In this document: positions 36,601 to 39,600 of the stretch, one piece after another | Layout: each line of letters opens with the position of its first letter | Position numbering within the stretch: position 1 is the stretch's first letter | From: Amoebidium appalachense | Taxonomy: Eukaryota > Protista > Ichthyosporea | NCBI GenBank assembly: GCA_963693365.1 | Contig: CAVNZM010000004.1 | Location: forward strand, 5,954,564 to 6,018,563 | DNA length: 64,000 bases | Direction: 5' to 3' | The notes under the pieces: model-generated | Told to the model about the DNA's origin: nothing | The model's input: the letters and a program-made list of their open reading frames with translations, nothing else | Database searches by the model: none | Translations under genes and position numbers: made by a program

Positions 36601-39600
36601 TGTGTGTGTGTGTGTGTGTGTGTGTGTGTGTGTGTGTGTGTGTGTGTGTGTGTGTGTGTGTGGTGTCGGGAACCCGTGTGGTTTCAATGCCTGCTTGTGT
36701 GGTCTCTGCCTGCTTGTGTGGTCTCTGCCCCCCCTCTCCCCCCTCCCCCCCCCCCCCCCCCCCAAAAAAAAAAAAAAAAAAAAAAAAACCACTACCCACC
36801 CATTACCCCCATCCCCCCCTCCCCCCCCCCCCCCCCCCCCCCCCCCCCCCTCCCCCCCCCCCCCAAAAAAAAAAAAAAATAAAAATAAAAAAAGCCTCCT
36901 TGTTCGTCCCTTTCCCCCTTGTTGCACTGTATCTGCGTGGCGTGTTCCGCTTTTCTCTGTACCCACAATTACCATAATTTTACGGGAGGACTTTCTGGTG
37001 CAACTCTGTATGTAGTGTGATGTTCACAGCAACTTGGATGCCATGAGTGCCCACTTCCCACGTTTTGCGCTTTTGAGTTGTTTATATACCCCCACCTCTC
37101 TCCCCTCCCTCCCTCCCCCTCCCCCCCCCCCCCCTGCATAAGCAACCCTGCTCGTCTTTGATCAAGACGGGTTGACCCACCCAAGTTCAGTTGATGCTGC
37201 TGTCTGAGTTGGAGCGTCGTATATACGCGGGCTAAGGGGTCGAAACTCAGACGCAATTGATGACTTGGGCCCTCCCTGAGGATGGGCTCTGCTTATGACG
37301 CATACTGTGCGCATGGCTGATGCTGCATACTTGAATGTTTGCCTTTGCATGTGTCCTGCATCATGCTTCTCATCGTCTATGCGTACTTCGTACTGTGTTC
37401 CGCATTCAAACCCCCCCTGTCTTCTTTCAGAGGTGTCCTTTCAGGACAGACCACTGTGTGGAGACATCTTTACTTCCATGCAACCGGGCATGGTTGCTCT
37501 GTGTCGTGCATCTGTAAGCACATACGCGTTTGTCGCTGCACTGCATTAGTTTGCACACACATCTTCACCGTTTTGCTCACCTTGCTTGCATAAGCAACCC
37601 TGCTCGTCTTTGATCAAGACGGGTTGACCCACCCAAGTTCAGTTGATGCTGCTGTCTGAGTTGGAGCGTCGTATATACGCGGGCTAAGGGGTCGAAACTC
37701 AGACGCAATTGATGACTTGGGCCCTCCCTGAGGATGGGCTCTGCTTATGACGCATACTGTGCGCATGGCTGATGCTGCATACTTGAATGTTTGCCTTTGC
37801 ATGTGTCCTGCATCATGCTTCTCATCGTCTATGCGTACTTCGTACTGTGTTCCGCATTCAAACCCCCCCTGTCTTCTTTCAGAGGTGTCCTTTCAGGACA
37901 GACCACTGTGTGGAGACATCTTTACTTCCATGCAACCGGGCATGGTTGCTCTGTGTCGTGCATCTGTAAGCACATACGCGTTTGTCGCTGCACTGCATTA
38001 GTTTGCACACACATCTTCACCGTTTTGCTCACCTTGCTTGCATAAGCAACCCTGCTCGTCTTTGATCAAGACGGGTTGACCCACCCAAGTTCAGTTGATG
38101 CTGCTGTCTGAGTTGGAGCGTCGTATATACGCGGGCTAAGGGGTCGAAACTCAGACGCAATTGATGACTTGGGCCCTCCCTGAGGATGGGCTCTGCTTAT
38201 GACGCATACTGTGCGCATGGCTGATGCTGCATACTTGAATGTTTGCCTTTGCATGTGTCCTGCATCATGCTTCTCATCGTCTATGCGTACTTCGTACTGT
38301 GTTCCGCATTCAAACCCCCCCCCCCCCTCCCCCTCAAGCCCGCCCACCCGCCCGCCGGAAGGATGGGCTCTGCCTATGATGCATTTTTTGGTGGACTCTG
38401 CAAGTTGTTGCGTTGTGTTGTCCGCTATGAAGGTGCACTTTACGTTCTTTGACACACCCCAAGTGAAGAAGTATCTGAGTTGGGTTGAAAGTGTGATTGG
38501 TTCTCTATGACACATTCTAACCCTTCCCCTTACCCCCCCCCCCCCCCCCCCCCCCCCCCAGCAATGCCGTCAACAGTGTGCGCTCACTGCTTGGGCTGGC
38601 CAAGTGTGTGGGTGGTGCCCCCAAGCTGCAGGCAACCCTGTCGGCTGACGAATATGCAAAGTTCGTGGCTAAGGTAAAGTGCTTACCCCCCCCCCCCCCC
38701 CCCCCCCCCCCCCCCAAGTTCGTGGCTAAGTAAAGTGCTTAACCCCCCCCTCCCCCCTCTCCCCCCTCACACACACACACACACCGTTTTTCTATTTCAC
38801 CTCGTGACTCTGCTTCCTTACCTCCCACCGTTTGTCTCTGACGTTCAGACTAATTGGTCATTAGAGACCGTCCCCCCCCCCCCCCCCATCCCCTCCTCCC
38901 TTCAATCTATCCCCCATTGTTTTTACCTTGTGTCGGTCTGTGGATTTGGGACGCTGATGGTGTTGTTTGGATAGCAGTGTTGTATGCTGACTTCTCTCTC
39001 TCTTTCTCAACCAAAAAAGGTAAAATAACCAGTACATAATTATAGTACTAATATTGAGACCCACAATATTATTAATAATAGTAAATAAAGCATGCACTGA
39101 GCTGTCTGGAGCAGGTTCAGCCGTCGCTGGACAAGATGGCACAGGCAGTGGAGAATGCAAAGCACCACGGCAACAAGGACCAACAGTATCTGGGTGATAG
39201 GGTGCTGGAGGTAGGTGATTGTGTGTGTGTGTGTGTGTGTGTGTGTGTGTGTGTGTGTGTGTGTGTGTGTGTACGTGTAGGGTAGGGTGGTGTTGGTGTG
39301 TGTGTGTGGGGGGGGGGGGGGGGGGGGGGGGGGAGGGGGAGGGGGTTTGCAAGACAATTAGTTGGATGATCTGTTTTTTTTTTTTCCTGGATGCCATACC
39401 GTATTTAGCACTTTTATTGGCGGTGTGTGTGCATGTTTGGGGGTGCAGGTGCAGGTTTTCATGTTTGTAGGCGTGCGTGAATGCTTCTCGTGCTTGCTCC
39501 CGTGTGCGTGTGTATGTACGTTGACACTTGCTTGTTCGTGCGTTTGTGAGCGTGTGGTGTATTGTATGGCCCATGTGCATGCCCGTTGGACCACGAGAGG

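Follow-up and report, generated by a model that had tools for sequence, protein, structure and literature searches.

The 64,000-nt window analysed here (contig CAVNZM010000004.1, positions 5,954,564 to 6,018,563) carries a family of short repeats, among them a tandem array at 37136–38321, that are likely to be retrozymes of the Penelope-like (Naiad/Chlamys-type) kind, each full unit bearing hammerhead core words that are predicted to fold with a split core and to cut at GUU|G, after position 37210 in the first unit of the array. A sequence-only reading of the same DNA had singled out 37137–37500 as a heavily base-paired RNA and candidate new ribozyme; this interval is most of the first 452-nt unit of the array and not a stand-alone gene. 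The main point of that proposal, a conserved + strand structure that covaries and likely includes a catalytic core, is borne out by double changes in the helices and by the retention of the core words. What did not survive is the new class: the element likely contains a known kind of ribozyme, a hammerhead, with a split core and the block order S-G-C, a wiring that was not met with in the literature searched.

Hammerhead core words in a non-circular order

Three blocks of the unit carry the words of a hammerhead core, given here for the first unit of the array (insertion A5, family A):

37202..37214 (+): block S, with a stem III strand, U16.1 (37209), U17 (37210) and the stem I strand GGAG; predicted cut after 37210
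37237..37252 (+): block G, with GGGUC (stem II), G12-A13-A14-A15.1 (37242-45) and the other stem III strand
37272..37282 (+): core of block C, with the stem I strand CUCC and C3-U4-G5-A6-N7-G8-A9 (37276-82)

All 12 hammerhead core nucleotides that we checked are present in A1, A2, A4, the three units of A5, B1 and B2. Departures were seen in B3, where A13 is replaced by G, and in the distant copy C, which has A3/U8 instead of C3/G8, a substitution that preserves the Watson–Crick 3–8 pair. Copy C also displays a broken stem I and an extra G before GAAA, and its core changes may be simple decay. Stems I and III are in register with the core in families A and B, and not in copy C. More specifically, stem III in A5 (8 bp, local pair probability 0.93–1.0) ends exactly at the A15.1–U16.1 pair, stem I (GGAG/CUCC, 4 bp) begins directly after U17 and stops directly before C3, and stem II comprises 5–6 bp in family A. 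Family B has a remodelled stem III of 12 bp and a stem I of 3 bp, whose position 3 is G-C where family A has A-U. The sequence-only reading rightly drew attention to the likeness of CUGAGGA and GAAAC to hammerhead pieces; its objection, a misfit of the stems, falls once a non-circular order of the blocks is allowed.

Within one unit, the blocks occur only in the order S-G-C, within 170 nt, and not in the circularly permuted orders of types I–III. As Rfam models cannot match this non-circular order, it accounts for the silence of the Rfam search, which gave nothing at gathering score in the window and, for 37100–38100, one low-complexity chance match. A descriptor covering all six block orders on both strands (128 kb) gave seven matches, every one of them in copies of the element and in the order S-G-C. 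On shuffled sequences, it matched 1 time in 5000 (A monomer) and 2 times in 5000 (B2 copy), 19 times in 20000 when stem II was not demanded, and 67 and 51 times in 20000 when the shuffling spared the native S/G hairpin or the native C block, respectively, rates that are optimistic because long linkers and a 2-nt bulge were allowed post hoc. A core profile search of the window retrieved 11 core-bearing copies and nothing else above noise. We conclude that the fold is very probably of the hammerhead type, and the sequence leads us to expect, with fair confidence, self-cleavage in vitro.

A probable detached stem II strand and the proposed wiring of a split core

Beside A9, stem II can be formed solely via a 2-nt bulge or by means of a detached upstream strand. 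The candidate strands and the helices around them are:

37174..37178 (+): GACCC, upstream stem II strand with G10.1 at 37174; pairs with 37237-41
37285..37290 (+): GGCUCU, rival contiguous stem II strand after a 2-nt (UG) bulge
37137-44 / 37290-97 (+): P1, closing helix, pair probability 0.89–1.0; two double changes in copy C
37146-48 / 37284-86 (+): P1a, short extension of P1, pair probability 0.32–0.82
37152..37170 (+): P2 hairpin, 7 bp with a 5-nt loop, directly 5' of the stem II strand; six of seven pairs kept in copy C
37180-86 / 37263-69 (+): helix CCCAAGU/ACUUGGG, at the position of the helix 'I' joining stems I and II in type-SGC hammerheads

The upstream strand tracks each change of its partner: the pairing is GACCC/GGGUC in family A, GACCU/AGGUC in family B, GACU/AGUC in copy C and GACUC/GAGUC in family D, a relative found outside the window, the links for B and D being inferred because their letters come from 30-letter contig loose ends and not from whole copies. 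The helix 37180-86/37263-69 begins 1 nt past the GACCC strand and ends 2 nt ahead of the stem I strand, and, read by eye, its register is kept in family B (7 bp, one double change) and in family D (two double changes). In an alignment of eight rows from three families, 96.8% of 156 cells are paired in the split-core structure, and five pairs show double changes; none of 500 shuffles scored as high and slid controls reached 29–49%, although these controls lean toward the split core because the structure was derived from the same rows. A rough energy sum, which includes no pseudoknot loop penalties, gave −70 kcal/mol for the split form versus −63, the nested minimum being −62. With the stem II strand upstream, the place of the joining helix, the stacking of P1, P1a and P2 and the energy sum all fall into place.

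We therefore regard the split arrangement as probable and a contiguous stem II as much less so: the core, as favoured by the compensatory changes, would have its break between A9 and G10.1, with two helices bridging the gap. Along the RNA, the order would be the stem II strand, the cleavage block S, the GAAA block G and the stem I strand with CUGAGGA. P1 and P1a would hold both halves of the split core together and would stack with P2, so that A9 would meet G10.1 at the junction, as though only a 2–3 nt bulge lay between them, and CCCAAGU/ACUUGGG would act as a clamp on stems I and II.

Copies of the element and insertion into C-runs

The window is eukaryotic and intron-rich, with abundant C-runs and CA repeats. 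Five of the insertions in it, A5 among them, belong to family A and three to family B, and copy C is a distant one:

37136..38321 (+): A5, 2.6 head-to-tail 452-nt units (37136-37587, 37588-38039, 38040-38321), with C-runs on both sides
10634..10883 (+): A1, family A, 5'-truncated at unit position 33
12915..13323 (+): A2, family A, starts at unit position 333
15141..15341 (+): A3, family A, starts at unit position 82, 6 nt past the predicted cut
18076..18647 (+): A4, family A, 1.26 units, starts at unit position 163
16589..16756 (+): B1, family B, one stem III mismatch
19854..20050 (+): B2, family B, core intact, predicted cut after 19875
63821..64000 (-): B3, family B, truncated by the window edge, with G in place of A13
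50481..50632 (+): copy C, in an intron of a ubiquitin-conjugating enzyme gene
37383..37417 (+): 3' terminal signal of the unit, with GTACTTCGTAC, CATTCAAA and an internal C7 run; seven of the eight A/B insertions end here

The units of A5 are 100% identical to one another and its left end is unit position 1; the four further family A insertions are 93–97% identical. The 3' end common to seven of the eight A/B insertions reads CATT(C/T)AAA followed by a C-run, and B1 ends about 20 nt earlier, likewise with AA and a C-run. The signal at 37383..37417 would be the start point of reverse transcription. At the other end, six of seven left flanks contain at least 10 C in 12 nt, versus 4.1% of window positions. 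Target-site duplications are indistinguishable from the C-runs, although in A1 and A2 the two flanks share C-strings, interrupted by T, of 9 and 12 nt. The C7 run inside the unit was read through once in A4 and twice in A5, from which we infer a template longer than one unit or circular. The internal unit junction is spanned by contigs from independent runs (X9 record 25, X10 record 2); hence the tandem is not solely an assembly product. Identity within the arrays (0 differences in 113) was considered as proof of rolling-circle copying and rejected, since over the same stretch A3, a separate copy, matches A4 just as perfectly.

The scanned reading frames of the unit gave no Pfam match above cut-off, in line with a non-coding element. 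Tandem non-coding units of a few hundred bases with one ribozyme motif each are what defines a non-LTR (non-long terminal repeat) retrozyme, and 5' truncation, a fixed 3' end, partial tandems and a microsatellite target, all found here, are features of non-autonomous Penelope-like elements of the Naiad/Chlamys group. The element is very probably a retroelement, and it is likely a retrozyme of the Penelope-like kind with a hammerhead variant.

Related sequences extend beyond these copies. Decayed pieces of related elements adjoin A5 (38345–38530) and B1 (16450–16550), and each ends at a C-run. Family D, which is not in the window, has a summed depth of about 5,700 versus 52 for single-copy DNA (run X2); its GUC-GAAA-C block is exact, and its stem III has 13 bp. 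Copy C is a single, probably decayed, relative of this high-copy family. A further variant, E, also absent from the window, was seen together with D in the contig loose ends at window 50531–50576. In another organism, a 468-nt contig of run X15 consists of a 438-nt variant unit, with a 15-nt deletion after the core, and a 30-nt overlap; we rejected the idea that this closed contig represents a circular RNA, and what it shows is head-to-tail repeats.

Transcription of the element

In runs X9 and X18, both from one sample, contigs connect 49664 with 50102 across a GT..AG intron that is uncovered in these runs and covered in the DNA run X2, which identifies X9 and X18 as RNA. Contigs from the A5 array number 14 in X9 and 289 in X18, and all parts of the unit are covered; the summed contig depth in X18 is about 24,000 for the element versus 547 for the neighbouring mRNA, a poor measure of abundance. 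The element is thus transcribed, and read-through from host transcripts may contribute. The predicted cut lies within some RNA contigs (X9 record 26, X18 record 20), which fit re-ligated circles and uncut RNA equally well; likewise, a monomeric circle and tandem DNA would produce an identical junction.

Comparison with known hammerheads and retroelements

Eckert et al. (2023; PMC10085705) distinguish six possible hammerhead orders, assuming three uninterrupted blocks, and the known sets of type-SGC hammerheads (HRIMA-1 and variants) come from soil metatranscriptome RNA. Our element resembles these in its S-G-C order, in the U following CUGANGA and in having stems I and II linked at their far ends by a helix, the role being played, under the split wiring, by 37180-86/37263-69. 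In contrast to the published type-SGC ribozymes, in which block C is whole and the S-G linker is about 3 nt, the element is genomic, its N7 is G, its S-G linker is a 21-nt hairpin and its stem II strand probably stands first, apart from CUGAGGA.

Naiad elements encode an endonuclease (EN) and a reverse transcriptase (RT) and prefer (TA)n targets; Craig et al. (2021; PMC8557442) report no canonical hammerhead in Naiads, one of which, Ovul, is marked 'HHR_half_core'. Two octopus Naiad tails (Obim and Ovul by file order) have, by eye, the same four-block order as our element, with Watson–Crick stems I, II and III of 6, 6 and 4+1 pairs and a 5-bp helix in the place of helix I, and in both a contiguous stem II would have at most 2 bp. 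The likeness described here is one of block wiring; our element, unlike a Naiad, encodes nothing and sits in C-runs. In the supplement of the same paper, a hammerhead of the plain type-CSG form, with a bulged U and a joining helix of 8 bp, is seen in another Naiad tail. Chlamys elements, according to the same source, have a (C)n target, 5' truncation and non-autonomous head-to-tail forms such as MRC1. Our element has in common with them the (C)n target, the 5' truncation, the partial or multicopy tandems and a 3' end in AA plus a C-run, an ending found in five of the six (C)n-family tails examined (names by file order); the host of the element, however, appears on weak evidence not to be a green alga. 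Internal initiation of reverse transcription has been demonstrated for another Penelope-like element.

Animal non-LTR retrozymes, which have a Penelope-like link, are likewise built of non-coding tandem units (150–450 bp) with one ribozyme each (Cervera and de la Pena 2020, PMC7229834; Li et al. 2026, bioRxiv 10.64898/2026.07.22.740005). The same sources describe canonical type I hammerheads with demonstrated cleavage and circles, and vertebrate copies that avoid introns. By comparison, the element has a different wiring, a 452-nt unit and at least one intronic copy (C), and its circles are putative. The literature searched, mostly exclusive of subscription papers and bioRxiv supplements and in part covered at the level of its listing, showed no report of the split wiring or of an SGC hammerhead in a genomic retroelement. 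A 2026 paper refers to previously reported hammerheads with additional helices; the main text of one source cited for such forms did not yield the corresponding passage. An insertion in the hammerhead core may thus have a precedent.

If the split-core form cuts, it breaks the assumption of uninterruptible blocks made by Eckert et al., and a class of genomic hammerheads would be missed by standard descriptors and by Rfam. It would also offer an answer to the reported absence of canonical hammerheads in Naiad/Chlamys elements: we propose, tentatively, that a seventh wiring cutting in cis may be their hidden processing ribozyme; here, a Naiad-type ribozyme would be combined with Chlamys-type poly-C targeting in a retrozyme that spreads through circular RNA. 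Other searches for relatives gave little: a scan with the element pattern returned 0 matches in viral contigs, and eight pattern loci in metagenome contigs were dropped as chance, their likeness being confined to 20–29 nt around the pattern.

Proposed mechanism and alternative explanations

In the mechanism that we propose, multimeric transcripts would be cleaved into 452-nt monomers, which would be ligated into circles. Priming would occur at the C7 run from the nicked G-rich strand of the target, and the template, either a circle or an uncut multimer, would be copied to yield 5'-truncated partial tandems. The circular intermediate is a somewhat doubtful part of this scheme, a little less likely than not.

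Several observations weigh against the scheme or the wiring on which it relies. To the limits already noted, namely the eight alignment rows that also yielded the structure, the loose ends behind the B and D links and the optimistic shuffle rates, one must add that the descriptor missed four of the 11 core-bearing copies: A3 (truncated), B1 (stem III mismatch), B3 (GGAA and window edge) and C (changed core and broken stem I). Stem I is short (4 bp in A, 3 bp in B), and a local hairpin mostly occupies its 3' strand and CUGAGGA in the nested ensemble. The published type-SGC descriptor (CUGAUGA(U)G; linkers of at most 8 and 15 nt; block C uninterrupted) does not, by eye, describe the element, which has CUGAGGA, linkers of about 21 and 17 nt, a G-G mismatch and a single-U bulge. 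No CUGANGA was seen by eye in the six Chlamys tails (~450 nt). Like the RNA contigs mentioned above, seven of the eight insertions traverse the predicted cut; cut linear monomers are therefore not the main template. The hammerhead of a Poseidon element required protein for cutting, and insertion in vitro did not depend on this hammerhead. Finally, no reverse transcriptase or GIY-YIG match was found in 116 window reading frames (picked from 190 by length and complexity), so that a partner reverse transcriptase is presumed.

Two alternatives retain the hammerhead and are both unlikely in our opinion. In one, the ribozyme is of the plain SGC type, with the contiguous GGCUCU strand forming stem II after the UG bulge and the upstream GACCC acting as an off-switch that sequesters GGGUC. 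This contiguous stem has six pairs in A, four in B and six Watson–Crick pairs in C, where it is the stronger duplex (−9.3 vs −4.9 kcal/mol), and published SGC ribozymes do have a U after CUGANGA. In family A, however, it is the weaker one (−7.2 vs −10.7), it shows no double change versus one for the upstream helix in the window alignment, and more in B and D, it is impossible in the two octopus Naiad tails, and it accounts neither for P2 nor for the register in which the helix-I equivalent is kept. In the other, the fold is a vestige or depends on protein and serves chiefly as a docking site for the reverse transcriptase, the tandems being produced from uncut multimers. The passage of RNA contigs and most insertions through the predicted cut, the behaviour of the Poseidon hammerhead and the competing hairpin that covers block C would all suit such a fold; yet A and B2 share 12 of 12 core nucleotides although their arms have diverged to about 75% identity, and re-ligated circles would likewise span the cut site.

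The remaining alternatives are far less probable. A classical type II or III hammerhead assembled between neighbouring tandem units can be written, as can all six orders, across a trimer, and dimer cleavage has been described for hammerheads of Penelope-like elements, but stem III would have to pair over about 450 nt in spite of its local pair probability of 0.93–1.0, which makes this reading very improbable. We give slightly less credit still to a tRNA-like short interspersed nuclear element (SINE), in which the fixed blocks TGTCTGAGTTGG and GGTCGAAAC would be A and B boxes of RNA polymerase III: both appear to resemble the box consensus, but the insertions continue for hundreds of bases 5' of the putative A box, runs of T4–T5 precede the 3' end in A3, A4, B2 and B3, and neither CUGAGGA nor the covarying stems would be explained. 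The least probable is the ribozyme class unrelated to hammerheads favoured by the sequence-only reading. The lack of an Rfam match and the additional conserved helices would speak for it; against it, the hammerhead core is matched in its words, in the distances between these and the stems and in the U-H site, and the silence of Rfam follows from the block order. Other known ribozymes (hepatitis delta virus (HDV)-like, twister, twister-sister, pistol, hatchet, hairpin and group I) were rejected, as the words that they need are not kept between variants, a comparison made by eye against consensus features.

Fold of the unit beyond the core

The complementary motifs described for family A were all recovered at the places quoted: CATAAGCA 37137 / TGCTTATG 37290, GTCTGAGTT 37202 / AACTCAGAC 37244, CGTCTT 37153 / AAGACG 37164, CCCAAGT 37180 / ACTTGGG 37263, TTGAATG 37331 / CATTCAA 37403, TGTCCT-TTC-AGGACA 37434, GTAC-TTC-GTAC 37383 and CCATGC 37476 / GCATGG 37488. 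The central stem and the inner hairpin of variant B are also as quoted, and variant B has no TTGAATG partner for CATTCAA. The blocks described as fixed are constant in A and B, whereas copy C departs in them. Heavy base-pairing was confirmed for 37137–37500 on the + strand (z −4.18, 0 of 100 shuffles as good), the minus strand giving z −1.78 and 3 of 100. The view that the + strand is the functional one is supported by the three G-U pairs of B and by the hammerhead words, but not by the 162-nt core alone, which is strand-blind (z −3.22 on + and −3.64 on −).

The fold signal sits in the 5' 280 nt of the unit, and only the 5' 160 nt carry the hammerhead-core signal. The 3' parts fold no better than shuffles (37418–37490, z −1.16; 37491–37587, z −0.13; 3' part of B, z 0.04). 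Note that a four-way junction may be drawn at 37418–37471, directly after the internal C7; it is not above shuffles (z −1.16).

Neighbouring features

The gene at 48961–51436 (+) encodes a protein similar to ubiquitin-conjugating enzyme E2 G1; one intron is confirmed by the spliced contigs, and copy C sits in a later one. A 62-residue ubiquitin-conjugating enzyme stretch is 90–93% identical to coral, Capsaspora and EukProt entries alike. The open frames at 53769–55995 (-), 420 and 235 codons long, are rich in Ser/Thr/Pro, include an internal repeat of 69 bp (55677–55820) and have no Pfam match. An array of seven 76-bp tandem units (41201–41733; 95–99% identical) is unrelated to the element, and a degenerate short T-rich repeat (TTTTCTTCAT-like) lies within an intron at 35300–35500.

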